From positions 742 to 64,741 of the forward strand of contig CANKQY010000001.1 of NCBI GenBank assembly GCA_947485745.1: a stretch of 64,000 nucleotides of DNA, written 5' to 3'. Below, piece after piece: positions 6,051 to 46,105 of the stretch. The translations under genes were made by a program, and so were the position numbers. Each line of letters opens with the position of its first letter. The first letter of the stretch is position 1. The notes under the pieces were generated by a model. It was not told the DNA's origin. It ran no database searches and worked only from the letters and a program-made list of their open reading frames with translations. This DNA is from Bacteroidota bacterium. GTDB lineage: Bacteria > Bacteroidota > Bacteroidia > UKL13-3.

Positions 6051-6644
6051 TTATTGCTCCTTCATACCTTTGTTGAAACAATGCCTACATCTTGCCTCAT
6101 AGCTATCCTTTTCGCCAAGCATAATGAGTGATTCATGACTAGTCTTTCGAAAAGAATGAGTAGCTAAATCTCCACAAACCATGCAAATGGCATGTACCTT
6201 GGTAACATATTCTGCAATGGCCATTAATTGAGGCATTACCCCAAAGGGCTTACCTAAATAATCCATATCAAGACCTGCAACTATAACCCTAATGCCTTGT
6301 TCAGCCAATTTTTCACATACATAAAGCAATTCGCTATCAAAAAATTGAGCCTCATCAATGCCAACTACAGTGGCATCATTGCTCATCAACAAAATATTCA
6401 AAGAATTACTAACTGGGGTTGATAAAATGGCATTATCATTGTGCGATACAACTTTGGTTTCATCATATCGAACATCAACGGTAGGCTTAAAAATTTCAAC
6501 TTTTTGATTGGCTATTTTTGCCCTATTTATTCTCCTAATTAGCTCCTCCGTTTTGCCCGAAAACATGGAACCACAAATAACTTCAACCCATCCTTTACGT
6601 TGGTTTAAATTATGCCTTGGTTCTATAAACATTTGTTCAATCAT
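6051..6644 (-). CDS. tdk: Thymidine kinase
   Basis: P-loop GSMFSGKTEEL, GIDEAQFF and a C-terminal zinc ribbon (CMVCG...CRHCF) are all present. Confidence 0.9.
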   Translation of the reverse strand: MIEQMFIEPRHNLNQRKGWVEVICGSMFSGKTEELIRRINRAKIANQKVEIFKPTVDVRYDETKVVSHNDNAILSTPVSNSLNILLMSNDATVVGIDEAQFFDSELLYVCEKLAEQGIRVIVAGLDMDYLGKPFGVMPQLMAIAEYVTKVHAICMVCGDLATHSFRKTSHESLIMLGEKDSYEARCRHCFNKGMKEQ

Positions 6645-6709: not shown

Positions 6710-7693
6710 ATGTTAAAATTTGTAGAAATAAAGATGCAAGTTATGAATTCTCTTCAGTTGGTAAGCAAAATCAGGTCGAAAACAGACCATCTCAATCAAA
6801 ATATTTCAGAATTACTAAATGGCAAGCTTCCATTTAATAGTATAGACAAGGATGTATTGAAAAAGCAATGTCTTGATTTATACGAACTTATTTTAAAATT
6901 AAAAACAGATTCAGAGCTTATTGAAGAGAAAAACATCCAAAAAAGTTTTCAGCAAATTACCCAAGAAATTGAGGTTCCAAGTTCGGTTCAAACCAAAATT
7001 GAAGAGAAAAAAATTGAACCCGAACCAATATTGCCAATAGAAGAGCCAAAAGAAACCTTCATAGAAAAATTAATAGAACCTGTTGTAGCAACCCAAAATT
7101 TTCAAGAGGTAATTTTCTTGGCCGATAAAAAAATGGAGTCGTTGGATGAAATTATTAGTAAGGTAGAAATTCAAGAAACAGCAGAAATTCTAGTTGCTGA
7201 AGATTCATTTGTTGCTGAGGATATAGAAATAGAGGAAATGGAAATTGCATCATTCGAAAACAGAGATCTTCCTCCTGTAAACATTGAAAAGGCTATTGAA
7301 AACAAAAGAATTCAATATACCGTAATGCCAGATAGAGAGGAGCAAAAAACAGTGCCACTCAATGCCACTTTCAAGGAAAAAGAACTTACCTATAACGAAA
7401 AAATTGCCCAGGTAAATCCACCAGTGATTATCCCAATGGCCGAGAATACCATTGAAGCACCTATAGATAGTATCAAATCTGCCATTAACCTCAATAAGAA
7501 GATTTCATTTGTAAACGAGCTATTTAAAGAAAATGTGGTTGAATACGCCAAAGCAATTGACCGCATGAACAATGCAAATGATAGAAATGATGCCTTCCGA
7601 ATTTACAACGAGTTAAAGCACCATTACAATTGGGACAATAACCATGAATTGGTGCACGACATAGAAAGATTGATTAAGCGCAGGTTTACTTAA
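6710..7693 (+). CDS. Hypothetical acidic (Glu/Ile-rich) protein
   Basis: A 327-aa ORF with strong coding periodicity, a low-complexity acidic centre and a conserved-looking C-terminal region (…YNELKHHYNWDNNHELVHDIERL). No recognisable catalytic motif. Confidence 0.45.
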   Translation: MLKFVEIKMQVMNSLQLVSKIRSKTDHLNQNISELLNGKLPFNSIDKDVLKKQCLDLYELILKLKTDSELIEEKNIQKSFQQITQEIEVPSSVQTKIEEKKIEPEPILPIEEPKETFIEKLIEPVVATQNFQEVIFLADKKMESLDEIISKVEIQETAEILVAEDSFVAEDIEIEEMEIASFENRDLPPVNIEKAIENKRIQYTVMPDREEQKTVPLNATFKEKELTYNEKIAQVNPPVIIPMAENTIEAPIDSIKSAINLNKKISFVNELFKENVVEYAKAIDRMNNANDRNDAFRIYNELKHHYNWDNNHELVHDIERLIKRRFT

Positions 7694-8133
7694 TCAATTT
7701 TCTTTTCAAAAATTCTCACCAACAATTCATCTAATTTTTTAATATCCTCAGGCAAATTAGGATCACGTGTATCCCACTTCCACTCCTGCAATTCAACACC
7801 TTTTCTCAGCCTTACAAAATGCGTTTCTTCGCCAATGGTATAAATGGTATTGTTGCTTTGCTTCATTTGATCAACCGTAGCATAAATAAATTCTGCATCC
7901 TTTTCTTTTACTTTTTTGTACTCTGTATACCTATTGGTAATAGTACTTTTTTGAAATAACTGTCCATTCTCTGACAAAATATAAGTATTGGTACCACCCG
8001 TTTTTTGATTCATGTAACCAAATTCCAACCTTAATTCTGGAATGGTGTCTCTGGTATATTTCTTACTACTGCATGAAAATAGCATTATACTTGCCATCAA
8101 AAATGCCCCTAAACTACCCTTAAATACTTTCAT
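7690..8133 (-). CDS. Hypothetical lipoprotein
   Basis: A signal peptide with lipobox (…ASIMLFSCSSKK) and a 147-aa product. Confidence 0.5.
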   Translation of the reverse strand: MKVFKGSLGAFLMASIMLFSCSSKKYTRDTIPELRLEFGYMNQKTGGTNTYILSENGQLFQKSTITNRYTEYKKVKEKDAEFIYATVDQMKQSNNTIYTIGEETHFVRLRKGVELQEWKWDTRDPNLPEDIKKLDELLVRIFEKKID

Positions 8134-8269
8134 AGTTTACCTAATTAATGTTGTATTAAAATTGTTTGCCAAGTTTATCATGCAATATCATAACAAATCA
8201 AATATAATGCCAATTGCTTTGATAAAATAATCACTCAAATAATTATACTATTTAGCTTGAGGCATATGC

Positions 8270-8306
8270 AAAAAAAAACCTTCCCAATTTCTTGGGAAGG
8301 TTTTTC
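8270..8306 (-). terminator. Rho-independent terminator, probably bidirectional
   Basis: The sequence is aaaaaaaaACCTTCCCAAtttcTTGGGAAGGTttttt: a perfect 10-bp stem with an A-run on one side and a T-run on the other. It lies just after the stop of the 2037-aa gene. Confidence 0.6.
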
Positions 8307-8310
8307 TAAA

Positions 8311-11300
8311 TTACTCTCGCAATAGCGTTATGGTTCCCCTTACGGTTACCTCCTCTTTGCCTCTCAATTGGTATTTGAAAACAAAATAGTAAGTACCTTC
8401 TGGGTTATCTTCTCCGGTATTGTTGGTTTTTCCATTCCACATTACTTTCGCATCTGTGCTTTCGAAAACTTTACCACCCCAACGATTCCAAATTTTCAAA
8501 TCATAAACTTCATTACCCTTAATTTTAATATTGAAAACATCATTATAGCCGTCGCCATTTGGTGTGAAAACGTTAGGGATATCAATTTCAGTTTGAAAGT
8601 TATTATTTACTTTCTTACATACCGAATCGTAACAATTGTCAACTCCTTCAGTTAAAGCCCAAATACAAATCCAGAAATCACCTGTATCGTTTTTAAAATC
8701 AACTACACCTAAGTGGAAATATGGATCATTGTTACTTGGAACATACAATTTAGGCAAATACTCAGAACCATCTGGTCTATATATTGCCCAATAGTAGCTG
8801 CTTGCATTGGCACTATCACTCTTGTTTAAAACAGCATATTTAGGCAATTCAATAAGCGTTGCATCCAAATCTGCTTTGGTTTTCAAAGCTGTTACCTGAA
8901 CCGTATCTTTAGATTCACACTTAGGAGTGTTTGGAATAAACCTAGTTGAATGCATTACCAAATTATACTTACCTGATTGGTAGAAAACATACTTAAAGGC
9001 AGAATCTTGATCAAAATTTGTTTTGAATGCAGTATCTGCTATTGCGGTAAAGTTTTCATTGAAAGCATACATTCTAAATTTGGTAATGGTATCCATGTCA
9101 GAAAGATTGCTCACTTTAAATACTTCACCTACGCAAACTTTATCCTTATCGGTTTCCATTTCTACATGATAAGGATTTTTCACGTAAATCTTAATTGCTT
9201 TTTCAAGACCATTTATTGTATCTGGTATAATAATTGGTGGGCAAGTTGCCAACACTGGTGGGTTCTTATCATAGCCAGCTGCAGTTATGTAGTAAATACC
9301 TTCTGTATCGTATATGATGTCAATGGTATCTGGATTATTGGTAACAATGGCATTGTAAACACCATCCGACCTACCAGAACGAATTAAGGTTGATGCTGTA
9401 GCACTTAGTGTTCCCGAATCGTTTGGAAAACTCACTACCCTCACCTTATAAGGAACGCAGCCTAACGTATCACTTAACAATTTAATCCTTGGTCTTGGTC
9501 CTGAAATATACACATCTTGCCTAGTGGTATCAAAACAACCTTGGTTGGTTTCTATCACCATCATTACATTGTACCAACCATTTTTCCTATATGGATAATA
9601 TGGATTTAATAAAGTAGAGAAGTAATTGTCTTTACCGTAACCATTGTCTCCAAACCACCACCTGCGCTCTTTAATTTGATCGCAAGGATAGCCTGTCGTA
9701 GCAAAGCAATTATCAATTACATAAGATGAGTCGAAGAAAATAGTTGGATCGCTACAAGCAAATATTCCCTTACTTAAGAATTTTGCTTTTGGCTCCACTA
9801 CATCCTGGTACATAAAACAAGTATCAAAATAACCAACTGTATCTCTTGTAATCATAGAAATTTTAAACTTGCCTGGCTTGTCAAACTTATAAGATGGATT
9901 CTTTCCAGTGGCATCAATAATACCATCTGATTGGAAATCCCAATAGATTCTTTCATAGAAATTGGTGTCTACTTTTACACAGAAATTGTAAATATTAGGT
10001 GCTGTTCCTTGCTGAATAAACTGCCAGCCGGTGGCACAACTATTAGCTATGGTAGAATAATATTTCGTAACATTAGGGAAGGTTTTTATTGAATCAATTG
10101 GATAATTGATCATACCTGCTCCATGTAAATCCAAAAATCTCAAAAGAGGCTCCTCTCCCGGTGAAAGCGGCCTTGAAGGATTATATTGCCCACCCGATTT
10201 AGGATACCAATACCTGATTGAATCTACAAAGTTTACTGTTTGTCCAATACATAAAACACCATCCGACAGGTTATTGCCCTCCTTCATGTAGAAGGTATCC
10301 ATTACACCAATAACTATTTGGCGACTAGCAGCGTTTGTGCACTCTGTAACTGTAACAACGTTATGTTGAACCTCTGTTATTTCGTTCTTTTTCAAAGTAG
10401 AACCCGGAGCTGCTGGCATTTCGTACGACGACATAAAATACTGGTGACGCACAGGATGCAAAAAGAATGCGGTATCTATTAAAGTATTTACCTGTTTAAT
10501 AGCCTGTGGAGGATACTGGTGAGTTGGATCTGTACATTGCCAAATGGTATCAAACCTCACAGATTTAAATACCCTTACCCCAACTGGATATGGTATGGTT
10601 TGTGATAAAATTGTCCATGGCGCTGTTTCCGCAGAAAACTGGTAACGTACTCGATTTCTCGGATAGGTATTCTTTTCAAAAAACGCACTGTCATTGGGGA
10701 AATTAATTGGGTCTAATTTCACAAAAGTATCTTCCGCATTGGTATAAAATGAGTCAACAGTTAAAGTACCATCTGCCCAATCCCAAACATCGGCCAAAAT
10801 AAAATCTTGTTGCTTGGTATTTGCATCAAATTCAATAATATCACCTTTACCAAACAACCTGCTCCAAGGCTCACGATAACCACCATTTGGCGTAAACAAC
10901 AATGGCGGTGTACCAGCTGGGTTTGTTTGAATAAAGTTTCGAGTAGTATCCCATCCATAATCTTGGCTTGGCAACATACTAGGATTTCCATAAGCTGAAT
11001 AGCCACCCACTTTTCTATAAGTGAATTTTGCATCTAAGCTAATAAAGTGGAAAAAGTTATGGTACCAAACGGTATCGGTAAAACAGGCTGGCTGACTAGC
11101 AGGTGTGCCACATGTACTGATATTTAAACAGCCAGTACCTAATATTAACCCAACTGTAACATAACCTCTTTTATCCTTTGGACTATTTGTATAAGGCCAA
11201 GCTCCATTTGGTTTGTAATGAGTCCAGTTAACTGCACCATTTGGATCTGTCCAAGGACCACCTGGGAATGGAGGGAAATTAACCAAATTAAAGAAACCAG

Positions 11301-14300
11301 GCCATGTATTACCCCCTGGAGTAACTGTTGTACCTGTCATTGGAGAGGTACCAGACCAATCCACAAATCCATCTAATTGGCAAGGCTGACCATCAATTCT
11401 ATCTGCTAAAGAATCATAATTTAATAAAATAAAAGTTCTCTTTACGCAATCAGGGTAAGTACCAGGATTTCCCGCGCTGTTATCAAAAACAAATCTTGGA
11501 TCACCTCCACTATTACCGCTTTTTAAATCTGGGCATTCTTTACCATCTTTACCCAAACCATAAGCATCTACACCAACCAATGGTAATTGAATGGTAGCTT
11601 CTGTTCCGCAATCCATAAAATCAACAAAGAATTCATCATCGCGTTTTAAAATGTATGAACCAGTGCCATCGGTTAATATTGGGTATGGTTTGTAGTTATA
11701 AATTAATCCTTCATAAACAGAAGTAATTAATAAAGTTGCATTACTAGCACCACCAACTAAGGTTACAGTTTGTCCAGATAAATAACCAATTCCAGGTGAA
11801 AGGATTAATACTGTATTTACTGCACCAGCGGCAACACCTACTCTTACTTTTAAACCAACTCCAGAACCACCAGTAACTAAATAATCACCTGCAGCATACC
11901 CTGTACCACCACTAGCTACTTTAACTTCCCCAACTAAATTATCTATTGATTTAGGCGTAGTAGTTCTGCTGAATGTATCGCTTACCAATGTTAATGGGAA
12001 ACCTGGGGTGGTATCTGTTCTTTGCACAATGATAATTTTACCACCATTCATATTAATTCTAGAGAATGATTTATATGGATCAGCAGACTGGTTATTGAAG
12101 CTATCTTTTTCAAACAATTTCACAGTATAACATGCGGCAACCGACCTATCAAAGAAATATTCGTATAAGGTTTTGATTCCACCAGGCAATAAATCATCAC
12201 CTTTATAAAATCTTCTATTGGTACCATCAGGCAATCTATCGTTCATCGCTGGAACTAGCAGCCCAGCTCTTGTAATCCTTGTACCTGCAGGAATGGTATA
12301 TTGCCAATATCCTTTGGCATTTGCAAATGGATCTGGAATGGCACCAGCTAAGGTTATAGGTCTGTTAGGATTAATATCTGCTGGCCAAATTCTACCTAAA
12401 GTATCAATTCTAGAAGGCGTGGTTCCGGCAGAATACATTGGTTGACCCCATTTAGCCGTATCTAGTGGATGAACCAAACGAGTTGGTGCTCCAGGCAATC
12501 CAGTTATTTTTGAGGCATCTTTTGCCCAAACAGTTGAATCGTATGGCGGAAAATCATGTCCATAATAAAACCACCTGTAAATATTACTCCATTTTTCAAA
12601 TTGGTGAATAGGCAGAGTATCATGTGAAAAATTACAATTTACTCTACCAGGGTAAATCCTACCACCAGCTATAAACCTACCAAGTGTTCTATTAAACATA
12701 TCGTTGGCATTGGTATATGGCTCCAAACCTTGCCTAGCGGCACTTGGGTTTGGTATAGAATAAGAAGTACATTGAGGTGCATAATTATCTGCAAAATCCC
12801 ACCTGATGTATAAATTATTTGATTGATAAGCCAAGCTTGTATTCACAAATTCAACAGGTAAATCTGGTCCACATTGTGTAGCTAAAAAAGGTTTAATTTT
12901 TACAGGGGTAATTGGGTCTTCAATTCTAACCAAAGGCCCCATAATATTAACACCAAAACCTCTTAATTGCGATTCTCTCTTTTTAATTGGCGCCTGTGCA
13001 GTATTATCTGTAAACCATTTCCAATAACTAACTATACTGTCTCTTGGTAAGCCATTAGACCCCATAATCCACCTGTATTTTGAAATAGAATCCGTAGCTT
13101 GGAAAAAATAACCATTGATTGTATTTAGGTTCGGATTCAATATCGGCGGTGGCACATACTGGCTATCACTTAATTGTGCGGTATCTATCCTCGACCAAAA
13201 ATTTAGTCGTTTTATAGGTTGCCCCGGGCAAGCTATTAATAAGGTTGGGAAATAATGGCCAAATCCTTGGTAGCGGTAACAAGGTGTGACTTCATTTAAC
13301 TTCTTATCTGAACCCGGTGGATTGGCATTTGGATCAGCAAAATCCCATAAAAGTTGAATTTGCGAATTTACGCCTTGCAAGGGATACATGTTATATAAAC
13401 AAACACTGGCAAGATTTCTATTTTGCAAACAAACACTATCTGCTATGGTGTCATTATTATTAGTTCTGCGGCTACGAATATCAAATTTCAATACAATGTT
13501 TTCTGGCAGCTGATTACCACTCATAACGTATTCAAAAGTATCAGCACAATTGTATTGTTTGTGGCGAACAATTAAACGAGGATTGAACACACCATTTTTG
13601 ATATACTTATAGGTAAAAATACTCCAACGAGGCAAATCTGCAACAGCTATTGGCGATTGAGATTGGTAAACACTGTCATCATCATATTCCCACCTAAACC
13701 ACAATAAATTTGAGGTTGAAACTGGTGTATTGTTCACAAAAATATAAGGTGTGGTATCACACCTTGGCGTACCACTCACTGTAAAACGTGGATTGATATT
13801 GGGAGCAACAAAAATAAATTTGAACTCTTTTGTTTCGCAACCACCAATATCTGTTGTGGTTAAACCAACATTGAATCTGCGATTTCCTTGCGTAAACCTG
13901 TGGCAGATATTTCCACCTGCCAAAATTGAATTACTATCTCCATCACCCCAAGTATAAATTACTTTTCCAATAGGCAAACTAGGCGCTGCTCCTGCAGTTG
14001 TATTGTCTTTAAAACAATAATAATTGTATTTAAAACATTGCGAATCCTGGCTTATTAAACTAAAATTAGCCACTGGTCTATTGTAAACCGTATCCCAAAC
14101 ATTTGTTTCTAAGGGAGAACGATTAGTAAACCTGGCAGTAACTTTAACATTGTAAATACCAGCCGCTGGGTACTGATAGGTTCTGGTATTAGATACCGGG
14201 CTACCGATATTATTGATACTTGAATCTCCATTTCCCCAATCAAATCTGTATGAGGTTACATCATTAACACTCACACCCGTAAGAAAGATGTCAACTTGGA

Positions 14301-14424
14301 TAGGACTCCCTAAACAAATTACACGTGGCAACACGTTCATGCTAATTGACTGTGAAAAGGCCGAGTTAGCTATGAGCCAACATACTGCCGATAAAGCTAG
14401 TCTAGTAATTAATCGTTTCATCAT
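8311..14424 (-). CDS. Giant secreted adhesin-like protein (2037 aa) with PKD-like repeats and a T9SS type-B (gliding-motility-associated, CHU_C-type) C-terminal domain
   Basis: N-terminal signal peptide. The C-terminus PNVFTPNGDGYNDVF…IWNRWGGKVFES…WNGK…GTYYFVFKYQ…RGTITLLRE matches the type-B CTD pattern. Confidence 0.85.
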   Translation of the reverse strand: MMKRLITRLALSAVCWLIANSAFSQSISMNVLPRVICLGSPIQVDIFLTGVSVNDVTSYRFDWGNGDSSINNIGSPVSNTRTYQYPAAGIYNVKVTARFTNRSPLETNVWDTVYNRPVANFSLISQDSQCFKYNYYCFKDNTTAGAAPSLPIGKVIYTWGDGDSNSILAGGNICHRFTQGNRRFNVGLTTTDIGGCETKEFKFIFVAPNINPRFTVSGTPRCDTTPYIFVNNTPVSTSNLLWFRWEYDDDSVYQSQSPIAVADLPRWSIFTYKYIKNGVFNPRLIVRHKQYNCADTFEYVMSGNQLPENIVLKFDIRSRRTNNNDTIADSVCLQNRNLASVCLYNMYPLQGVNSQIQLLWDFADPNANPPGSDKKLNEVTPCYRYQGFGHYFPTLLIACPGQPIKRLNFWSRIDTAQLSDSQYVPPPILNPNLNTINGYFFQATDSISKYRWIMGSNGLPRDSIVSYWKWFTDNTAQAPIKKRESQLRGFGVNIMGPLVRIEDPITPVKIKPFLATQCGPDLPVEFVNTSLAYQSNNLYIRWDFADNYAPQCTSYSIPNPSAARQGLEPYTNANDMFNRTLGRFIAGGRIYPGRVNCNFSHDTLPIHQFEKWSNIYRWFYYGHDFPPYDSTVWAKDASKITGLPGAPTRLVHPLDTAKWGQPMYSAGTTPSRIDTLGRIWPADINPNRPITLAGAIPDPFANAKGYWQYTIPAGTRITRAGLLVPAMNDRLPDGTNRRFYKGDDLLPGGIKTLYEYFFDRSVAACYTVKLFEKDSFNNQSADPYKSFSRINMNGGKIIIVQRTDTTPGFPLTLVSDTFSRTTTPKSIDNLVGEVKVASGGTGYAAGDYLVTGGSGVGLKVRVGVAAGAVNTVLILSPGIGYLSGQTVTLVGGASNATLLITSVYEGLIYNYKPYPILTDGTGSYILKRDDEFFVDFMDCGTEATIQLPLVGVDAYGLGKDGKECPDLKSGNSGGDPRFVFDNSAGNPGTYPDCVKRTFILLNYDSLADRIDGQPCQLDGFVDWSGTSPMTGTTVTPGGNTWPGFFNLVNFPPFPGGPWTDPNGAVNWTHYKPNGAWPYTNSPKDKRGYVTVGLILGTGCLNISTCGTPASQPACFTDTVWYHNFFHFISLDAKFTYRKVGGYSAYGNPSMLPSQDYGWDTTRNFIQTNPAGTPPLLFTPNGGYREPWSRLFGKGDIIEFDANTKQQDFILADVWDWADGTLTVDSFYTNAEDTFVKLDPINFPNDSAFFEKNTYPRNRVRYQFSAETAPWTILSQTIPYPVGVRVFKSVRFDTIWQCTDPTHQYPPQAIKQVNTLIDTAFFLHPVRHQYFMSSYEMPAAPGSTLKKNEITEVQHNVVTVTECTNAASRQIVIGVMDTFYMKEGNNLSDGVLCIGQTVNFVDSIRYWYPKSGGQYNPSRPLSPGEEPLLRFLDLHGAGMINYPIDSIKTFPNVTKYYSTIANSCATGWQFIQQGTAPNIYNFCVKVDTNFYERIYWDFQSDGIIDATGKNPSYKFDKPGKFKISMITRDTVGYFDTCFMYQDVVEPKAKFLSKGIFACSDPTIFFDSSYVIDNCFATTGYPCDQIKERRWWFGDNGYGKDNYFSTLLNPYYPYRKNGWYNVMMVIETNQGCFDTTRQDVYISGPRPRIKLLSDTLGCVPYKVRVVSFPNDSGTLSATASTLIRSGRSDGVYNAIVTNNPDTIDIIYDTEGIYYITAAGYDKNPPVLATCPPIIIPDTINGLEKAIKIYVKNPYHVEMETDKDKVCVGEVFKVSNLSDMDTITKFRMYAFNENFTAIADTAFKTNFDQDSAFKYVFYQSGKYNLVMHSTRFIPNTPKCESKDTVQVTALKTKADLDATLIELPKYAVLNKSDSANASSYYWAIYRPDGSEYLPKLYVPSNNDPYFHLGVVDFKNDTGDFWICIWALTEGVDNCYDSVCKKVNNNFQTEIDIPNVFTPNGDGYNDVFNIKIKGNEVYDLKIWNRWGGKVFESTDAKVMWNGKTNNTGEDNPEGTYYFVFKYQLRGKEEVTVRGTITLLRE

Positions 14425-14496
14425 ATATATATTTTTACTTTTTTGTCTTCTTTATTTGTTTGCCAAACTACAATTTTATTTTCAAATTTCTAGTCC

Positions 14497-15372
14497 CTAC
14501 CTAAACAGATTAATAAATCCACGTTTAGTTTGTCGCTCTGTTTCATCATTTAACTGATAGTCAATTACATAAATAAATCTCCCACTTGCACAATCCACGC
14601 CTGTCTTCCAATTGGTGCCATTCCAAGTATTGTTTAATTGATTGCTTTCAAAAACCACCTCACCATTTGCATCCACAATAGAAACATGATAATAAGATGC
14701 ATGATCTATTTGCACCTTCCAGGTATCATTTAAACCATCACCATCAGGACTAAATGCGTTGGAGATTATTGGTTCAAACGCATTGGTCTTGATGTCGTTA
14801 TTTTCCTTGCCTTGAAAATTTCTATTACTGTAGGCTCCTTTTGGTTCATTCTCTTTTTCCTTGGTTTCACTATCCTTGGCGGTAGCTTTTACAGGGGGTT
14901 CGGTTTGATCCAAAGCCTTATCGATGCTAGGGATTTGCGCTGGTTGGCTAAGCTCAGAATTTATTTGATTGCTAATTGCTTCAATTTGCACTTTGCTTTC
15001 CAAAAATTGCTTTTTTGTGCTAATTTTTGCTTCACCTTTAATAACAGTTTCTGGAGCCAATATAGTTTCTTGCTTCAACTCTCCTTTTTCAATAGTATTT
15101 TCTTGTGGAGGCAAATTCGTTTTTTCAACTTCCTTTTGGTTCAAACCGAAATATAAACCAAGCGAAACAAACGACACACCAACAACTACAGCAATTTTAC
15201 CACCCAAGCTAATTTGCTTAATGGTATTCATTAATTGATTGCCCTGCCCACTTGGTGCTGGCGAAACTTGAATTTGCTTTTCTATAAAGCTCCAAGCATC
15301 GGCAGGTGGAATTGGCTCAAAATTGGCCATCCCTTCTTTGATGAGTTGATCTATGTTTAAATTATTTTTCAA
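14497..15372 (-). CDS. Anti-sigma-factor-like single-pass membrane protein whose extracytoplasmic C-terminus is a T9SS type-B CTD
   Basis: It has no signal peptide. An approximately 60-aa cytoplasmic N-terminus (…NFEPIPPADAWSFIEKQI…) is followed by one TM helix (IAVVVGVSFVSLGLYFGL), a charged low-complexity linker and a C-terminus NAFSPDGDGLNDTW…VFES…WNG…GRFIYVIDYQ…RGFINLFR. That C-terminus is homologous to the CTDs of the neighbouring 2037- and 936-aa proteins. Its start overlaps the sigma-gene stop by 4 bp (ATGA). Confidence 0.7.
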   Translation of the reverse strand: MKNNLNIDQLIKEGMANFEPIPPADAWSFIEKQIQVSPAPSGQGNQLMNTIKQISLGGKIAVVVGVSFVSLGLYFGLNQKEVEKTNLPPQENTIEKGELKQETILAPETVIKGEAKISTKKQFLESKVQIEAISNQINSELSQPAQIPSIDKALDQTEPPVKATAKDSETKEKENEPKGAYSNRNFQGKENNDIKTNAFEPIISNAFSPDGDGLNDTWKVQIDHASYYHVSIVDANGEVVFESNQLNNTWNGTNWKTGVDCASGRFIYVIDYQLNDETERQTKRGFINLFR

Positions 15373-15920
15373 AATCTACTTTTTTCTTTGTTCAATTGAT
15401 TCCAATGCTGGATAAATAAAGCCCTGGCCCTAGAGAGTTGACTTTTAGAAGTGCCCTCACTAATTCCAAGCATTGATGCAATTTCGGCATGATTAAAACC
15501 TTCAATAATATAAAGGTTCAAAACAGTTCTATACCCTGTTGCCATATTGCCTAAAACTGCTAGAATTTCTTTTTGTGTAATCTTCCCCAAAGCCTCAGGT
15601 GCTTGTCCAATTCCATGAGCATCCTCTAAATCACTTTGTTGTTGATACACCTTATTTACTCTATAATGCTCTAAGGCAGTATTTATAAAAATGCGCTTCA
15701 TCCATCCTTCCAAAGAACCTTTTCCAGTATATTGCTCTAGCTTGGTAAAAACCTTTACAAAACCATCTTGGAGTATGTCTTTTGCATCCTCCTTGGTATT
15801 GCCATATCTTAAACAAACCGCATACATACTGCTGCTAAAGTGCTGGTAAAATGCCTTCTGAGCTTTTACCTCTCTTTTTAAACATCCTTGTATTATATTA
15901 TCCTCAAGTTGCTTGCTCAC
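15369..15920 (-). CDS. RNA polymerase ECF-type sigma-70 factor
   Basis: Sigma-70 region 2 (DAKDILQDGFVKVF…) and a region 4 helix-turn-helix (…IEGFNHAEIASMLGISEGTSKSQLSRAR) are present in a 183-aa product. Confidence 0.9.
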   Translation of the reverse strand: MSKQLEDNIIQGCLKREVKAQKAFYQHFSSSMYAVCLRYGNTKEDAKDILQDGFVKVFTKLEQYTGKGSLEGWMKRIFINTALEHYRVNKVYQQQSDLEDAHGIGQAPEALGKITQKEILAVLGNMATGYRTVLNLYIIEGFNHAEIASMLGISEGTSKSQLSRARALFIQHWNQLNKEKSRF

Positions 15921-16052
15921 TTTTTCAGTCTTATTTAAGCAGATGAATTAAATTGTTTGAAGGTTGCAATGCTCCGATTTTTTTTCTTAATTATTCGTTA
16001 ATCCTTTGCCTTATAACAAATTTCCAAAATAAGTGGTAATTTAGTCGAACAA

Positions 16053-18863
16053 ATGCGTTGGCTAAGATACTCCATATTTCAATTATGTTTATTGCTTGTT
16101 GCAGGCAATATTTTAGCACAATTGCCTGAACCGAGCCAACAAGCCACCGATTTTTTTGAATGGCGCGAAAATAAAGGTCAGTGGGACCCAAACATTTATT
16201 TTCGTTGCAAACAGCATACACTTGATTTACAATTAGGGTCCGATTTTTTTTCTTATTATTTTTTTGATGAGGCGCAATTAGATAGACTGCACTCGCACGG
16301 ACCAGTAAAATCAAACCCTGCGGCAGGTGATACCCTTCTTAACATGTATGCCTTAACTTTTAAATTTATAGGCGCACAGCAATCTAAACCAATTCTTACC
16401 TCACCTAAAACACATTATTATAATTACTACATTGGCAATAATCCTACACATTATGCCAACAAGGTAAGAGCATCCAATCATGTGGGCTTAGCAAGTATTT
16501 ACAAGGGCATCAATGTGTTGGTTCACTCCAATAAAAACCAATTAAAAATGGAGTATTGGCTCGAACCAAACGCTCAATTAAGTGATATAAAAATTGAAGT
16601 AAATGGGGCAAGCAATGTTTATTTAGAATACGGCGATTTATATATACAAACACCAAAAGGCTTAATAAAGGAGCAGAAACCCTATTCATACCAAATTATT
16701 GGCGACAAAAAAATTGACGTATCTATACACTATTTGGTAAATGGCAATGAGATAAGTTTTGTAGCAGACGAGAGTTATAACCCAAGTTACCCTTTGGTTA
16801 TAGACCCTGAAATTGTTTTCTTAACCTACTCTGGCTCCACCGAAGATAACTTTGGCTGCTCTGCTACTCCGGGTGAAAATGGCACTTTATACGCAGCAGG
16901 CATCACCACTGGCGATCCCACTTCATTGGGCAAATACCCGGTTACGGCAAATGCCTTCCAACTGGCTTATGCTGGTGGTGGCAATGCAGAAGGTGAGTTA
17001 TTGGGTAGATTTCCATGTGATATTACCTTCAGTAAATATAGCTCAGATGGCAAAACATTGTTATATGCCACATACTTGGGAGGGTCAAACAACGAGGTAC
17101 CTCATTCATTAGTTGTAGATGATAGCGCCAATTTGATCATTATGGGAAATACCTATTCCAATAATTATCCTGTTTCCAAAAACGCCTATGATACCAGTCA
17201 TAACGGCCGACACGACATCATTCTAACCAAGTTTGATAAAGATGGTAAATTAGTAGGTTCAACCTATTTGGGTGGAGTCGGAAACGATGGCATTAACACC
17301 AATAACACTACTCAATATTTTTTTGCAGATAGCTACCGAGGCGATGTAATTGCTGATTCTATGGGAAATATTTATGTGGCTTCCTTTTCTCAATCAAGCA
17401 ATTTCCCCACAACTCCGCTTTGCCTTCAAAACACCCTCAAGGGATTTCAAGATGGCGTAGTGTTTAAAATGAGTCCCGATTTAAAAAAACTCACTTGGAG
17501 CACCTATTTAGGAGGGAATAACATTGACGCCTTTTACAGCCTCGACCTAGAGCCCAATGGCAGCATGTGGCTTTCTGGCGGCACCAACAGCACCGACATT
17601 CCTGGCACAATTGGTACGCTTAACCCCGGTAATTTAGGAGGAAAAGCTGATGGTATCATTGTTTTGCTGGATGCAGCAGGCAGGAATATTCTAAAATCAA
17701 CCTATTATGGCACCAGTAATTACGATCAAATAATTTCATTAGAAATTGACCAAGATGATAATATTTACATTGTAGGACAGAGCTTAGGTAAAATACCTGT
17801 AACCAATGGCGTTTATAACAACCCAAATTCTCATCAATTTATTGCTTGTTTGAGCCCAGATTTAAAAACCAATTTGTGGTCAACCGTTTTTGGTTCAGGC
17901 CGACCCCAAATTGACCTCACCATTAATGCATTTTTAGTAGATGAATGCAAAAGAATATATGTGAGCAGTTGGGGTGGGGCAACCGCAACAAAAACAGATG
18001 GCTCTTTATCTTCTACAGATGGAATTCCTGTTACCGCTGATGCGTTTCAAAACGTTACTGATGGGAGTGATTTCTATTTACTCATGCTCAATAAAAACGC
18101 CTCTGGCTTGCTTTATGCTACTTTTATTGGTGGCGACAATCCAAATAACTCAGGCGACCATGTGGATGGCGGTACCAGTAGGTTCGACAAAAAAGGGGTT
18201 GTTTACCAGAGTATGTGCGCCAGCTGTCCAAATAACAATATTCCATTTACTGATCTGCAAACAACACCAGGAGTTTATGCACCAATAAATTTGAGTCCGC
18301 GTTGCAGCAATGCTGCCCTCAAATTTGATTTTAGAATTCAAAATGCTAATTTTAATTGGGAGGCAGATACCTGCGCTTCAATTTTCAAATTCAAAAATTT
18401 GACACCAAATGCCTCTAATTTCTTTTGGACCTTCCCCAACGGTGATACTAGCTTTGAGGAGAGTCCTACCAAACAAATTGCCAGTATCTATTATGGCGAC
18501 ACCATTAGACTTATTGTGGAATTTGGCACCAATTGCGCTGATACTGCTTACGGCTTTGTGAGTTTACCAGATTCGCTCGATAAGTTAAATGTTCCTAATG
18601 TATTTACGCCAAATGGCGATGGCAAAAACGATGATTTTAGAATTGAAGGAGTAAGTGGCCAATGCAATGAAACCGAGGTCTATATTTACAACCGCTGGGG
18701 TCAACTCTATTTTAAAGACGATGTGAGCTATTTTAGCTGGGACGGCAAAGATGATAAGGGCATAGAAGCGCCCGAAGGCGTTTATTTCTTTATCCTAAAA
18801 ACCAAAAAACTCAATACCGGCCAACAAGAAGAGTTACACGGAACCATTACGCTGATTAGATGA
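16053..18863 (+). CDS. SBBP beta-propeller-repeat protein with T9SS type-B CTD (936 aa)
   Basis: Signal peptide MRWLRYSIFQLCLLLVAGNILAQ. Repeated ST/YLGG…D…GN.Y..G.T.S.NFP motifs. C-terminus NVFTPNGDGKNDDF…IYNRWGQLYF…WDGK…GVYFFILK…HGTITLIR. Confidence 0.85.
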   Translation: MRWLRYSIFQLCLLLVAGNILAQLPEPSQQATDFFEWRENKGQWDPNIYFRCKQHTLDLQLGSDFFSYYFFDEAQLDRLHSHGPVKSNPAAGDTLLNMYALTFKFIGAQQSKPILTSPKTHYYNYYIGNNPTHYANKVRASNHVGLASIYKGINVLVHSNKNQLKMEYWLEPNAQLSDIKIEVNGASNVYLEYGDLYIQTPKGLIKEQKPYSYQIIGDKKIDVSIHYLVNGNEISFVADESYNPSYPLVIDPEIVFLTYSGSTEDNFGCSATPGENGTLYAAGITTGDPTSLGKYPVTANAFQLAYAGGGNAEGELLGRFPCDITFSKYSSDGKTLLYATYLGGSNNEVPHSLVVDDSANLIIMGNTYSNNYPVSKNAYDTSHNGRHDIILTKFDKDGKLVGSTYLGGVGNDGINTNNTTQYFFADSYRGDVIADSMGNIYVASFSQSSNFPTTPLCLQNTLKGFQDGVVFKMSPDLKKLTWSTYLGGNNIDAFYSLDLEPNGSMWLSGGTNSTDIPGTIGTLNPGNLGGKADGIIVLLDAAGRNILKSTYYGTSNYDQIISLEIDQDDNIYIVGQSLGKIPVTNGVYNNPNSHQFIACLSPDLKTNLWSTVFGSGRPQIDLTINAFLVDECKRIYVSSWGGATATKTDGSLSSTDGIPVTADAFQNVTDGSDFYLLMLNKNASGLLYATFIGGDNPNNSGDHVDGGTSRFDKKGVVYQSMCASCPNNNIPFTDLQTTPGVYAPINLSPRCSNAALKFDFRIQNANFNWEADTCASIFKFKNLTPNASNFFWTFPNGDTSFEESPTKQIASIYYGDTIRLIVEFGTNCADTAYGFVSLPDSLDKLNVPNVFTPNGDGKNDDFRIEGVSGQCNETEVYIYNRWGQLYFKDDVSYFSWDGKDDKGIEAPEGVYFFILKTKKLNTGQQEELHGTITLIR

Positions 18864-21496: not shown

Positions 21497-22216
21497 TTAC
21501 AGGGACATTGTTTCTTTGAATTTTACGGCTTGGCGGCGGCTGACTTCGATTTTGCTGCCGTCTTTCATGTAAAACAAAAATCCGGAATTGAAGAATGGCT
21601 CAATCCTATCAAGGTAATTGAGGTTGATGATTTGCTGGCGATTGGCCCTAAAGAAAATTTGGTCGCTCAATCTCTCATCTAAAGAGTTAAGCGTCCGGTG
21701 GATGAGGGGTTGGTATTTATCGAAATATATTTTGGCATAATTTCCGGCAGATTCAATCATTTTTATCTCATCCAATTTAATGTACCAACAACGGTCCCCA
21801 TCTCTGATAAAAACCTTTTCATCTGGCAATAATCTTGCTCTGAGTTTTTCTAATCGCAGCTCATCAATTTGTTTCTTTGCTTTTAAGATGGCTTCACCTA
21901 ACCTGTCCTTTTGAATGGGTTTGAGTAAATAATCTAATGCATTTACCTCAAAAGCTTTGATGGCAAATTCATCGTAAGCAGTGGTAAAAATAACAGCTGG
22001 TGTTTCAATTAAATCTTCCAATAAATCGAACCCCGTTTTTTCTGGCATTTGTATATCGAGGAAAATCAACTGAGGCTTCAATTTATCAATCATATCTAAG
22101 GCTTCATCAACATTGGAAGCCTCACCAACAATTTGTATGTCTGTATATTCTTTTAACAGATTTTTTAATCCTTCGCGAGCCAAACGCTCATCATCAACTA
22201 GAATGGTTTGTATCAT
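21497..22216 (-). CDS. LytTR-family two-component response regulator
   Basis: A receiver domain (ILVDDE…FLDIQMP) is followed by a LytTR DNA-binding domain. It overlaps the upstream kinase gene by 4 bp. Confidence 0.9.
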   Translation of the reverse strand: MIQTILVDDERLAREGLKNLLKEYTDIQIVGEASNVDEALDMIDKLKPQLIFLDIQMPEKTGFDLLEDLIETPAVIFTTAYDEFAIKAFEVNALDYLLKPIQKDRLGEAILKAKKQIDELRLEKLRARLLPDEKVFIRDGDRCWYIKLDEIKMIESAGNYAKIYFDKYQPLIHRTLNSLDERLSDQIFFRANRQQIINLNYLDRIEPFFNSGFLFYMKDGSKIEVSRRQAVKFKETMSL

Positions 22217-23241
22217 AATGGCAATATTATTTTGGTAACTACTTCTGTGTCGTTTAAATTTTCAATAGTAAAACTTGCGCGGTCTTCAAACAAAATTGCT
22301 AAGCGTTGGCGGGTATTCTCTAAGCCAAATCCTAGCTCATGCTCATTTGGTTCAAACCGACCAGTATTGATAATTTGAACCAACAATTGGGTATCATTTT
22401 GAGAGGCTTTTAGCTGAACCAAACCACCATCCCTCGACTTAAAAATACCATGTTTAACGGCATTTTCAACCAAGGTTTGCAACATCATTGGTGGCACTTT
22501 TGCTTTTAAAACTGCTTGATCGATATCCATTTTTATAGCTAGCCTGTCATCGAAACGAATCTTTTCTATTGCCAAATAATCATTCACAGTTTCTAGTTCT
22601 TGTTCCATAGAAACAACCTTTTCTTTACTCATTTGAAGGGAGTTTCTAAGCAAGCTACTCAATCTATTGATGGCTTCTTTGGAAAGCTCGGGCTCTACAT
22701 CTACAAGGGTTCTGATGCTATTTAAGGAGTTAAAAAGAAAATGCGGATTGAGCTGCGTTTTGAGATTTTGGTATTGATTTTCTTTGATGATTGCCTGCAA
22801 TTGGTACTTGGCTTTTTCGGCCTCCAATGATCTTTCCCAGTATTGAAACAAATGATAAACCAGGGCCCAAAGTAAAATGTATTTGCTCCAATTGAACAGG
22901 TAATTTAAAATGAGAATGGTATCAATAGGCAATTGGTTCATCAATGGAATGGTGATTCTATCGAGGTAAATATTGAGCATGGTGAGCAAAAAAGAAACAA
23001 AGCCAATGCTCAATACCGCAATAGGAAGCAATCTTTTAATTGGCAGATTGATCCAACTCGTTTTGATGATAAAAATACGGTAGAGGTGCGTGAGGGCAAT
23101 ACCTGCAACAAAATTGATGGCTACGTTTAGGATCAGCAATTCATTGAAGCCATATATATTTCCATAGCCAATGAATTCAAGTAAAACAAATAGAAACCAA
23201 CCACCTATCTGACAAAGCCAATACAGCGTATTCTTTTTCAT
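22213..23241 (-). CDS. Sensor histidine kinase (LytS/YehU-like, His_kinase-type)
   Basis: N-terminal TM helices, an H-box region (…NPHFLFNSLNSI…) and an ATPase domain (…GFGLENTRQRL…). Confidence 0.85.
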   Translation of the reverse strand: MKKNTLYWLCQIGGWFLFVLLEFIGYGNIYGFNELLILNVAINFVAGIALTHLYRIFIIKTSWINLPIKRLLPIAVLSIGFVSFLLTMLNIYLDRITIPLMNQLPIDTILILNYLFNWSKYILLWALVYHLFQYWERSLEAEKAKYQLQAIIKENQYQNLKTQLNPHFLFNSLNSIRTLVDVEPELSKEAINRLSSLLRNSLQMSKEKVVSMEQELETVNDYLAIEKIRFDDRLAIKMDIDQAVLKAKVPPMMLQTLVENAVKHGIFKSRDGGLVQLKASQNDTQLLVQIINTGRFEPNEHELGFGLENTRQRLAILFEDRASFTIENLNDTEVVTKIILPL

Positions 23242-37624: not shown

Positions 37625-39061
37625 TTGATTTTTTTGTTTTCTCTTGCAAAGCCACAAATTGGAAGTTTAGATAATACCTTTGGTATTGTAACAACAAATG
37701 GTGGTATGAAAACATGTCTGCAGGATAGAAGCAATGCTACCGCCATTCAAAGTGATGGTAAAATTGTGGTAGCAGGCACAAGCAATGATAAATATGCTTT
37801 AATTCGTTATAATACCAATGGCAGCTTAGATGCGACTTTTGGGATTGGTGGAATTGTGGCAACTGATATAGGTTATTCTATTAACTCCATAGCCATTCAA
37901 AGTGATGGTAAAATTGTGGCAGCTGGTCAAGGTTCCCCATTAATCCGCTTCAATACCAATGGAAGCTTCGATGCAACATTTGGTAATGGCGGGACTGCAA
38001 TTATTGGAGGCGACGCTATTGCCAATGCTATAACTATCCAAAATGATGGTAAAATAATTGTGGTATGTGAATCTCAGGGCAGTACATATATTTCTTTATT
38101 ACGTTTCACTGCCAACGGAACTTTAGACAGCTCATTTGGGTCCAATGGAATTGCAACTAAATCTGGTTTAGGTGGCCGCGCTTTAGCCATTCAAAGTGAC
38201 GGCAAAATTGCGGTGGCTGGGTTTATCGTGAAAGTTACCTCGACAGGAGGCACAGCTTATGAGTTTGCCTTAGTCCGTTATTATACCAATGGTAGTTTGG
38301 ATAGCACTTTTGGGACTGGCGGAATTGTTTCTTCAGATTTTGGTAGTTTTGCTATTGCTGAAGCTATAGCCATTCAAAGTAACGGTAAATTTTTGCTGGC
38401 TGGTGAGGGTTTTGTGTTGGCTCGTTATAATACCAACGGAAGTTTAGATAGCACTTTTGGTAATAATGGAATAGTAAATACAAATATTTCAGATGTAAAA
38501 AAAGTTAATTCCTTAGTTATTCAAAGTGATGGTAAAATTATAGCTGGGGGATATAGCATTCAGGGGTCTAATTTTGCTTTGAATTTGACCGTAGTCCGTT
38601 ATAAAATAAATGGCAGTTTAGACAGCACTTTTGGTAATACGGGAATTGTCTCAACTCCAGTTGGCAATCATAATACTGATCTTCATTCTATTAAAAGTGC
38701 GCTTGCCATTCAAACTGATGGTAAAATTATTATAGCGGGTTTTAGCGCATTTAACAATAACTACGATTTTGCTTTAGTTCGTTATCACAATGATAATACA
38801 TTAGGAATGAACGTAATAGGAAATCAAAATACAAAAATAAACATTTATCCCAACCCCACCCAAAATCAAATCAATATTAATGTTCCTGTAAAATCACTCG
38901 GTTCAAATTATTCAGTTAATGACTTTACAGGAAAAGTAGTACTTGAAGGAAAAATAGATTCAGAAAACACAACAGTTGAATTGGCTCATTTACCCTCAGG
39001 CATTTATTTTTTGCGTGTTGGAGAAAATTTGAAACAAACATTTAAAGTGATAAAAGAATAA
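37625..39061 (+). CDS. Delta-60-repeat protein with T9SS type-A CTD, apparently 5'-truncated (TTG start, no signal peptide)
   Basis: Repeated …LD.TFG.GG…AIQSDGKI..AG…ALxRYNTNGSLD… units. C-terminus …INIYPNPTQNQININVP…GIYFLRVGENLKQTFKVIKE. The first codon is TTG, no upstream in-frame ATG precedes the stop at 37589, and the N-terminus MIFLFSLAKPQIGS is not a signal peptide. Confidence 0.6.
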   Translation: MIFLFSLAKPQIGSLDNTFGIVTTNGGMKTCLQDRSNATAIQSDGKIVVAGTSNDKYALIRYNTNGSLDATFGIGGIVATDIGYSINSIAIQSDGKIVAAGQGSPLIRFNTNGSFDATFGNGGTAIIGGDAIANAITIQNDGKIIVVCESQGSTYISLLRFTANGTLDSSFGSNGIATKSGLGGRALAIQSDGKIAVAGFIVKVTSTGGTAYEFALVRYYTNGSLDSTFGTGGIVSSDFGSFAIAEAIAIQSNGKFLLAGEGFVLARYNTNGSLDSTFGNNGIVNTNISDVKKVNSLVIQSDGKIIAGGYSIQGSNFALNLTVVRYKINGSLDSTFGNTGIVSTPVGNHNTDLHSIKSALAIQTDGKIIIAGFSAFNNNYDFALVRYHNDNTLGMNVIGNQNTKINIYPNPTQNQININVPVKSLGSNYSVNDFTGKVVLEGKIDSENTTVELAHLPSGIYFLRVGENLKQTFKVIKE

Positions 39062-45646: not shown

Positions 45647-46105
45647 ATGGCCTTAAGACTATTTCTGTTTCTACTAATAAACTTCGCAGCGCTTGCCCTT
45701 GGCGGTTTAGCCACCAGCGATGGTGTTGTTTCTTTATGGTATCAAAATTTAAATCAGGCTCCGTGGACGCCGCCAGGCTGGGTGTTTGGGGCGGCTTGGA
45801 CCTTCATTTTGATTAGCTTTTCTGTTTATATGACCTATCTATGGCCAAGGGTGAAAAACCATGAGTTACTCATAGCCCTTTTTACCTTGCAATGGATACT
45901 AAATGTTGGCTGGAATCCAATGTTTTTTAACTACCACCTAGTAACAATTTCGTTGGCAATAATTACGGCATTAACGCTGTTGGTGGCAGCCATTATGATT
46001 ACATATTATACGGTAAGCAAAAGCAAATCCTTATTGATTTTGCCCTACTTCTTGTGGTTGCTCATTGCAACTTCTTTAAATGCTTATATTTATTTATACA
46101 ACTAG
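45647..46105 (+). CDS. tspO: TspO/MBR family tryptophan-rich sensory protein
   Basis: A 152-aa product with 5 TM helices and the conserved WY…L.KP.WTPP.WVFG..WT motif (WYQNLNQAPWTPPGWVFGAAWT). Confidence 0.85.
   Translation: MALRLFLFLLINFAALALGGLATSDGVVSLWYQNLNQAPWTPPGWVFGAAWTFILISFSVYMTYLWPRVKNHELLIALFTLQWILNVGWNPMFFNYHLVTISLAIITALTLLVAAIMITYYTVSKSKSLLILPYFLWLLIATSLNAYIYLYN

Follow-up and report, generated by a model that had tools for sequence, protein, structure and literature searches.

The stretch of DNA analysed here (64,000 nucleotides of contig CANKQY010000001.1 from a Bacteroidota bacterium, assembly GCA_947485745.1, referred to throughout as the window) encodes a 291-residue protein that has no signal peptide, possesses a single transmembrane (TM) helix, and ends in a C-terminal domain (CTD) of the type-B class, i.e. 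a sorting domain of the T9SS (type IX secretion system). Its gene overlaps the end of a gene for an extracytoplasmic function (ECF) sigma factor and is followed by the gene of a giant type-B cargo protein, an arrangement that recurs in a large protein family. On balance, this TM-CTD protein is probably the anti-sigma factor of the overlapping ECF sigma, and would use a cargo-mimicking CTD to couple the sigma factor to the T9SS or to its shuttle pathway. The coordinates of the features discussed are collected in Table 1.

The open reading frame (ORF) of the TM-CTD protein begins with a TTG codon (15372..15370) that overlaps the TGA stop codon (15371..15369) of the ECF sigma gene, the total overlap of the two genes being 4 nt. 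The original prediction, made for this ORF from the DNA letters, had noticed this overlap, and what it missed was the anti-sigma-type partner that the protein appears to be within a conserved operon of sigma factor, TM-CTD protein, and giant cargo. An alternative upstream start that could supply a signal peptide was looked for and ruled out, because the ORF is already maximal in its own frame (in the ORF list, each frame is opened by the earliest start codon that follows a stop) and cannot be extended. The TTG start is preferred over an internal ATG at M15, because residues 5–13 are conserved across distant orthologues.

On the Kyte–Doolittle scale, all 19-residue windows starting in the first 25 residues (thus covering residues 1–43) score 0.04 or lower, and the sole hydrophobic peak lies at residues 54–78, with its maximum of 1.93 at residues 60–78. 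The lack of a signal peptide and the single hydrophobic helix at about residues 60–78, both claimed in the original prediction, are borne out by these values; as judged by hydropathy, the first ~45 residues contain no hydrophobic stretch, which is also true of ~125 homologues, and no AxA-type site was found after the hydrophobic segment of the TM-CTD protein. Both of the flanking CHU_C proteins begin with classical signal peptides (MMKRLITRLALSAVCWLIANSAFSQ and MRWLRYSIFQLCLLLVAGNILAQ). Among 116 homologues, the TM helix starts at residue 57 ± 5 with a mean hydropathy score of 2.0, and the mean net flank charge is +1.6 on its N side and −0.3 on its C side, which favours an N-in orientation. 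The absence of a signal peptide together with the single TM helix therefore suggests that the CTD should be located in the periplasm and anchored to the inner membrane in an N-in/C-out topology, consistent with what had been proposed. That proposal also saw in this a topological paradox, a view that does not hold, because single-pass proteins of N-in orientation can do without a cleavable signal peptide.

For the predicted cytoplasmic N-terminal module, AlphaFold2 (AF2), run with 130 sequences of the family, yields two helices at residues 7–16 and 26–33, with block-mean predicted local distance difference test (pLDDT) values of 67, 86, 82, and 68 for residues 1–40; an AF2 run with 8 sequences was uninformative (pLDDT 34), and all structural results are taken from the larger run. 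Residues D8, P23, and W27 of the module are at least 90% conserved in the same 130 sequences, and the pre-TM N-terminus as a whole shows the strongest conservation outside the CTD in the TM-CTD family. No folded passenger domain is present between the TM helix and the CTD, which are joined just by a nonconserved low-complexity linker, rich in E, K, P, T, S, and N, with almost no aromatic residues and no Cys. What is conserved in this tether is its length, 140 ± 10 residues in the family, a range partly fixed by the length filter that was applied, yet one within which nearly all of the top-scoring matches fall anyway. At ~3.5 Å per residue, its contour length is estimated to be roughly 400–500 Å, so that the tether should be able to cross the periplasm.

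The assignment of the C-terminal part to the type-B class, as originally predicted, was upheld by both sequence and fold. Residues 203–289 match the Pfam family CHU_C (PF13585; E = 3.9e-17; score 62.6 bits, cut-off 27) and TIGR04131, the NCBIfam model of the type B sorting domain of the T9SS (score 37.6 bits, cut-off 35), and residues 200–291 are predicted as a β-sandwich with pLDDT values of 96–98. In the PDB, the best fold match is to the translocon-bound CTD of NucA, a T9SS substrate (8glk_D; E = 3.6e-4, TM-score 0.61), with PorZ and the RemZ CTD also among the fold matches; a sequence search of the tethered CTD against the PDB returned spurious β-propeller matches only. The domain occupies the extreme C-terminus (the matched segment ends two residues before the last of the 291, and the family ends in ...GxIxLxR), and alignment with the cargo CTDs of the same loci shows that the blocks PNxF(T/S)PNGDGxND, VFES, WxG, GxYxY, and the terminal GxIxLxR are retained. 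The “NRWG” block of the cargo proteins is replaced by “DANG” in the window protein (residues 234–237, 14671..14682) and reads D-(K/R/A)-(K/N)-G in the tethered family, its position being in the turn between two predicted strands. The domain also contains the single periplasmic cysteine of the protein, Cys261 (14590..14592), which is 88% conserved in 130 family members and has an equivalent in some of the giant-cargo CTDs (L011 and L013), not including that of the window; an intermolecular disulfide might be conceivable.

The tethered CTD is 32–52% identical to CTDs of the giant-cargo class, as compared to 22–36% for CTDs of the DUF7948 class, which is that of the other CHU_C protein flanking the operon. 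In BLAST searches against signal-peptide-bearing cargo, giant-class CTDs made up at least the top three matches of the tethered CTD in 8 of the 8 family loci tested, and a DUF7948-class CTD entered the top five only once, in fifth place (L014). The single best BLAST match of the window protein is a 291-residue CHU_C protein (P0165), whose class is not assigned and which also appears in the top five for four other loci. In a long variant of the TM-CTD protein (P0107, 439 residues, locus L016), the TM helix is followed by PKD and CHU_C domains, making it a miniature of the cargo C-terminus, and the best BLAST match of its CTD is its own downstream cargo. By these sequence comparisons, the tethered CTD is in the same CTD subclass as the co-operonic giant cargo, a relation that looks like an old duplication which has been retained. 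Ongoing concerted evolution of the tethered CTD with the cargo CTD of its own genome was also considered, but no sign of it was seen; the tethered CTD groups with giant-class CTDs in general.

The architecture is shared by a large family. When 1.84 billion cluster representatives were searched exhaustively with a profile, 460 matches at E ≤ 1e-10 were obtained, and ~125 of the best 150 are proteins of 285–335 residues that align end to end, amounting to at least 125 clusters (at 50% identity) with the same TM-CTD architecture. In 130 sequences, the family shares the N-terminal motif, the lack of an N-terminal hydrophobic segment, the TM helix, the tether, and a terminal CTD of 88 residues; in eight close homologues (51–80% identity), the linker has drifted, whereas the first 35 residues, the TM helix, and the CTD are kept. 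Members originate almost entirely from metagenomes and metagenome-assembled genomes (MAGs) of Bacteroidia and are publicly named just [quoted passage not shown] or “hypothetical”. It was the exhaustive search of representatives that revealed the family: a word-index search with the 130-sequence profile retrieved few members, a word-index search with the N-terminal 84 residues alone gave no match, and a profile scan of genome contigs with a narrow alignment matched one MAG. No model in Pfam or NCBIfam (June 2026 release) covers the TM-CTD architecture, no CTD-bearing anti-sigma factor or FlgM-like control of a T9SS was found in the searchable full-text literature, and such a partner is absent from the main text of the ECF classification paper (PMC7826278). 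The earlier suggestion that the role is a new one for a type-B CTD agrees with this, such a use being undescribed in Pfam, NCBIfam, and the searchable literature.

The genomic context of the family was read at loci L001, L003/L004, and L010–L016 (L016 being that of the long variant), which represent nine lineages with 22–80% identity. In every locus read, an orthologous ECF sigma gene (48–97% identical to that of the window) is positioned immediately upstream of the TM-CTD gene and in the same orientation, with junctions between the two ranging from a 14-nt overlap to a 3-nt gap; across 12 loci other than the window, taken from two families, the range is from −17 to +5 nt. A giant PKD/CHU_C gene, encoding 1,557–2,101 residues with a signal peptide, lies directly downstream in 8 of the 8 loci that extend past the TM-CTD gene (all but L010), and this arrangement is kept in L001 and L011–L016 as well as in a 66-kb contig of GCA_041442895.1, as seen in its gene listing. 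The distance from the TM-CTD stop codon to the giant gene is 72 bp in the window and 24–33 bp in L011–L013, and no terminator-like site was found between the operon genes in the window. The 72-bp spacer (14425..14496) itself recurs almost unchanged in L001 and L003, even though the protein of L001 has just 51% identity, and it might contain an internal promoter or an RNA element. On the other side of the sigma gene, a divergent DUF7948/CHU_C gene is present in L001, L003, and L011–L015 and is missing in L016, L010 being too short in this respect. Two PorP_SprF genes are found beside the cassette in L003, in L015, and in the 66-kb contig of GCA_041442895.1, and a GldJ/GldK-like gene of the formylglycine-generating enzyme (FGE)-sulfatase family is also found beside it in some relatives.

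Close upstream of the sigma gene, in the intergenic region between the divergent genes, lies a conserved promoter motif of the family form TTGCAACCT-N15-C(A/G)TCTG. An AAC-type −35 element combined with a CGT or CAT −10 element at fixed spacing is the signature of ECF promoters. The CGT −10 box has been assigned to ECF promoters in flavobacteria (PMC9723704). The core GCAACC-N16-CRTCT has one match in the window, with 0.16 expected, and the same motif with the same spacing is found upstream of the orthologous sigma gene in L001–L004, L010–L013, L015, and L016, L014 having one mismatch. The core occurs once per family locus, upstream of the sigma gene, save for L016, in which a second copy (GCAACC-N16-CATCT, 8281..8307) is placed between the long-variant gene (6953..8272) and the gene of the 1,557-residue cargo and therefore ties the cargo directly to the sigma factor. 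A search of the window for further members of the regulon, allowing up to three mismatches in the promoter pattern, gave chance-level and mostly intragenic matches. These data support an autoregulated operon, running from the sigma factor through the TM-CTD protein to the giant type-B cargo, in which the sigma factor is predicted to recognize the conserved ECF promoter and to drive its own operon. In the same intergenic region, 8 nt upstream of the ATG of the DUF7948 gene, there is a block, GTAATTTAGT (16036..16045, plus strand), which is shared with L001, L003, L012, and L013. Because it resembles the primary-sigma −7 box of Bacteroidota, TAnnTTTG, it suggests that the divergent DUF7948 gene is not driven by the ECF sigma.

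A second sigma-coupled TM–linker–CHU_C family (P0161/P0162/P0167; loci L005–L009) was also found, and because its N-terminus (…ELRRMEVPVTEEEW…KRY.KFGRK) is unrelated to that of the first, the TM–linker–CTD design can be said to recur. In its members, the segment ahead of the TM helix is strongly basic, and a linker leads to a CHU_C domain which is likewise devoid of the NRWG tryptophan; their start is coupled to a different ECF sigma, ~30% identical to that of the window, and their gene is followed on the 3′ side by a Peptidase_M16-like gene and by a gene for a 690-residue fn3/CHU_C protein, to which the tethered CTD is not especially close. A hidden Markov model (HMM) of the N-terminal module of the first family found no paralogue in the window and did not detect the second family.

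In the model proposed here, the ~35-residue two-helix N-terminal module would stay in the cytoplasm and sequester the sigma factor, with the single TM helix anchoring the anti-sigma factor in the N-in/C-out orientation and the disordered tether of ~120–140 residues carrying the type-B CTD at its extreme C-terminus. The sigma-driven operon would make, in addition to the anti-sigma factor, the type-B-CTD surface protein of ~2,000 residues. Since the tethered CTD is paralogous to the cargo CTD, it is predicted to work as a cargo mimic, reporting the state of the T9SS translocon and/or of a PorP/SprF-type shuttle to the cytoplasm. The binding partners of type-B CTDs are PorP/SprF-like barrels of the outer membrane, believed to gather cargo at the SprA/Sov translocon (PMC9143113, PMC12618676), and the tethered CTD would therefore be positioned to report on that route. 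An available secretion route would engage the tethered CTD, following which the anti-sigma factor would be inactivated, possibly by pulling, by site-1 cleavage, or by intramembrane proteolysis, causing the sigma factor to be freed and the giant cargo to be made; with the route absent or saturated, intact anti-sigma factor would accumulate and the operon would be off. Synteny, promoter, protein architecture, family membership, and the relationships among the CTDs come from the sequence data, whereas binding of the sigma factor, the topology, engagement with the T9SS, and the direction in which the switch works are inferred. Such a checkpoint or capacity-sensing logic is considered the most likely one by analogy with FlgM, with FecR-type signalling, and with PorA-PorXY-SigP of Porphyromonas gingivalis, in which a CTD protein feeds into the ECF-sigma control of the T9SS (PMC7712824, PMC12152298). 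A more specific form of it, put forward tentatively and as a possibility rather than as an expectation, is a T9SS secretion-competence checkpoint in which the GldLM/PorLM-powered translocon or the PorP/SprF shuttle catches and pulls the CTD, which would cause the anti-sigma factor to be cleaved or extracted and the sigma factor to be freed, so that the adhesin-like cargo of ~2,000 residues is made only if the route is functional and free. The two roles that the original prediction had offered for the protein, namely that of a receptor or decoy for T9SS components and that of a protein released by proteolysis and then exported, may each correspond to a possible signalling step of such an anti-sigma factor.

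It has to be noted that several observations weigh against this reading. No match to Pfam or NCBIfam other than CHU_C/TIGR04131 was obtained for the protein at E ≤ 0.1, the class-I, zf-HC2, RskA, and FecR families all being unmatched; a Pfam scan of 25 N-terminal sequences, run to E = 10 with HMMER filters that drop most matches above ~0.1, gave no anti-sigma family, and the Pfam scan and a PDB profile search with the N-terminal module gave scattered single-member matches, the strongest being YkpC (E = 0.0021), none of them to an anti-sigma factor. Because the module matches no known anti-sigma domain, the anti-sigma role is drawn only from context and topology. The positive-inside signal is modest, K and R alone averaging 1.7 on the N side and 1.6 on the C side in the 116 homologues. 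In addition, no copy of the promoter motif was found ahead of the conserved neighbouring DUF7948 gene, no PorP/SprF gene was detected among the window ORFs of at least 150 residues, and the tethered CTD is no closer to the cargo CTD of its own genome than orthologues from other genomes are. The NRWG tryptophan is found in just 2 of 156 TM-anchored sequences (both of which are probably giant genes with over-extended ORF starts) as compared to 15 of 19 CTDs of signal-peptide cargo. Secretion of the SprB CTD was reported to require all five conserved type-B motifs (PMC12618676), and since the tryptophan is gone, recognition by the T9SS may have been lost. Type-B secretion signals have also been reported to need 150–235 residues (PMC12618676), whereas only ~90 folded residues are present in the tethered CTD. 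The tethered CTD could equally bind the T9SS without being translocated.

These points bear most directly on an alternative in which the protein is still an anti-sigma factor, and its CHU_C fold is a recycled Ig-like β-sandwich that senses a polysaccharide, envelope stress, or the cargo itself in the periplasm and is never touched by the translocon or the shuttle. Such a reading would explain why nearly all tethered CTDs have lost the tryptophan and why the extended upstream region reported for type-B signals (PMC12618676) is missing; moreover, the family-specific Cys261 suggests a function of its own, and β-sandwiches are generic binding modules, for which many non-T9SS matches were returned by Foldseek. 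Nevertheless, the remaining type-B blocks, from PNGDGxND through VFES, WxG, and GxYxY to GxIxLxR at the exact C-terminus, are kept, the CTD is of the subclass of the co-operonic cargo, and the cassette always occurs with a type-B cargo and in relatives adjoins two PorP_SprF genes, which makes a sensor so fully divorced from secretion unlikely, if worth keeping in view.

Somewhat less probable again is a protein that is no regulator and instead has a structural or assembly role at the inner membrane, to which it is anchored as a tether, receptor, or decoy, and the CTD of which would dock on a PorP/SprF-like shuttle or on the translocon, in order to bridge the envelope or to chaperone or queue the giant adhesin. 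An N-terminus without a recognizable anti-sigma domain would fit such a factor, the conserved length of its tether is in keeping with a reach across the periplasm, and its gene would be co-transcribed with that of the giant cargo. However, the best conservation outside the CTD is found in the cytoplasmic N-terminus, which would be superfluous for a purely periplasmic tether, and in both families, which differ in their N-termini and in their cargo, the start is always coupled to the stop of an ECF sigma gene, this being a hallmark of sigma/anti-sigma pairs. That the protein is ordinary T9SS cargo whose unconventional export signal consists of a long N-region and a cleaved signal anchor, the remainder then being secreted, appears highly improbable; it does carry a bona fide C-terminal type-B CTD, but its hydrophobic segment begins at around residue 57 and is followed by no AxA-type site, the region preceding it is the most conserved part of the protein, the place of a passenger is taken by a disordered nonconserved linker, and every described T9SS effector has a Sec signal peptide (PMC12618676, PMC9143113). 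An anti-sigma factor with a cargo-mimicking CTD thus remains the reading that we favour.

Beyond the cassette, the window is full of T9SS cargo, including six proteins with type-A CTDs, and the organism therefore clearly has a T9SS; together with the three type-B CTD genes, nine genes of the window bear T9SS sorting domains. The DUF7948 passenger family carries a type-A CTD on the 1,506-residue protein and a type-B CTD on the protein of the cassette, so that two sorting signals are used with it in one genome. The 2,450-residue fusion looks, from its domain content, like a giant secreted phosphate-scavenging enzyme. The LytTR response regulator and histidine kinase pair, encoded near the cassette, directly follows the giant cargo gene in L013 (16397..18171), and could be either a matter of plain synteny or a second input into regulation. 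Another recurrent neighbour is a thymidine kinase gene, found in the window (6051..6644), in L012, and in L015.

Table 1. Features of the window, followed by loci of the second sigma-coupled family
Feature	Position	Strand	Description
TM-CTD ORF	14497..15372	−	291 residues; single-pass membrane protein, putative anti-sigma factor; stop codon (14497..14499) counted in
N-terminal module, residues 1–36	15265..15372	−	predicted cytoplasmic; motif NIDxLLK...F.P..P..W..I; putative sigma-binding part
Single TM helix, residues 57–78	15139..15204	−	Kyte–Doolittle peak 1.93
Tether, residues 79–199	14776..15138	−	predicted periplasmic; low-complexity, disordered; pLDDT ~45–60
Type-B T9SS CTD, residues 200–291	14500..14775	−	CHU_C / TIGR04131; at the C-terminus
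ECF sigma factor	15369..15920	−	183 residues; Pfam Sigma70_r2, Sigma70_r4_2, Sigma70_ECF; TIGR02937 75.7 bits (cut-off 42.9)
ECF-type promoter upstream of sigma gene	15940..15968	−	TGCAACCT-N15-CATCTG (−35 GCAACC, 16-nt spacer, −10 CATCT)
Giant PKD/CHU_C protein	8311..14424	−	2,037 residues; signal peptide; type-B T9SS cargo; likely regulated product
DUF7948 + SBBP β-propeller + CHU_C protein	16053..18863	+	936 residues; signal peptide; divergent neighbour
LytTR response regulator + histidine kinase pair	21497..23241	−	near the cassette
Fusion protein, 2,450 residues	25925..33277	−	choice-of-anchor I, phytase-like, 5′-nucleotidase C-terminal, PhoX alkaline phosphatase; type-A CTD
DUF7948 + SBBP protein, 1,506 residues	40410..44930	−	eight PKD_6 repeats; type-A CTD (Por_Secre_tail)
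Four more type-A CTD proteins	37625..39061, 46102..46941, 47080..51081, 55586..57877		DUF5122 propeller protein, small 279-residue protein, 1,333-residue PKD protein, FG-GAP protein
Second-family loci	L005 7441..12278; L006 7463..12303; L008 7442..12288		

Little is known of the regulation of T9SS cargo genes outside the PorXY-SigP cascade of P. gingivalis, and a Sec signal peptide is held in the field to be common to all CTD proteins, a rule that the large, conserved, and unnamed TM-CTD family consistently breaks. For annotation, this implies that CTD-based predictors will miscount TM-CTD proteins as secreted cargo. If the proposed coupling is true, it would be the first direct wiring of T9SS activity or capacity to cargo transcription and would provide a natural reporter for the recognition of CTDs from the periplasmic side, with the loss of the NRWG tryptophan serving as a natural experiment that separates the CTD residues needed to be “recognised” from those needed to be “translocated”. 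If the checkpoint is true as well, the protein would represent a membrane-tethered counterpart of FlgM, and a T9SS sorting signal would be able to act as a signalling ligand.

A pair consisting of an ECF sigma and a single-pass anti-sigma factor is a well-known kind of system, and the TM-CTD gene resembles those of the regulators in the RseA/sigmaE, RsiW/sigmaW, and RsiV/sigmaV pairs in that it is located 3′ of, and translationally coupled to, an autoregulated ECF sigma gene, as is generally known for these (PMC4183432, PMC8999054). Common to them would also be the layout predicted for the protein, in which a short N-terminal part lies in the cytoplasm and a single TM helix leads to a sensor part in the periplasm. 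The TM-CTD protein differs in having no recognizable class-I or zinc-binding anti-sigma domain and only ~35 structured residues on its predicted cytoplasmic side, and in that its putative sensor is a T9SS sorting domain on a disordered tether of ~130 residues. Class-II domains, CnrY and NepR among them, come closer to a structured part of ~35 residues.

With FecR/FecA, it shares the concept of an inner-membrane regulator of a sigma factor, the C-terminal periplasmic domain of which would touch an outer-membrane β-barrel (PMC11637429, PMC9249621), the candidate partner here being a 14-stranded barrel of the PorP/SprF type or SprA rather than a TonB-dependent transducer, as may be deduced from PMC9143113. 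The TM-CTD protein has no FecR domain, and the cassette is without a TonB-dependent transducer. The likeness to FlgM/sigma-28 lies in the proposed logic, in which an anti-sigma factor bears the export signal of a secretion machine, and a working machine relieves the inhibition of the cargo genes. FlgM is a soluble protein that is fully secreted by the type III system. The TM-CTD protein, in contrast, is predicted to be membrane-anchored, the machine would be the T9SS, and its engagement is proposed by analogy; no paper linking FlgM-type logic to the T9SS was found in the literature searched.

PorA-PorXY-SigP of P. gingivalis is similar in that a protein which is nearly a pure T9SS CTD signals to a cascade ending in an ECF sigma (PMC7712824, PMC12152298). 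PorA, however, possesses a signal peptide, ends in a CTD of type A, reaches the surface by secretion, and signals via a two-component system, whereas in the TM-CTD protein a type-B CTD is fused directly to a putative anti-sigma factor, and the regulated genes appear to be those of cargo and not of T9SS components. The established pairs of type-B cargo and shuttle, SprB/SprF and PG1035/PorP, have the same family of C-terminal domain, most blocks of which are kept in the TM-CTD protein, and relatives of the cassette adjoin two PorP_SprF genes and the GldJ/GldK-like FGE-sulfatase gene; the TM-CTD protein differs from such cargo in having no signal peptide, no passenger, and no NRWG tryptophan, and in its membrane anchor. 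What is new as compared to all of these systems is a T9SS sorting signal in the position of the sensor domain, a conserved cassette in which it is combined with a type-B cargo, a short N-terminal module that falls into no described class, and a whole family of CTD proteins without signal peptides, which contradicts a general statement of the T9SS literature.

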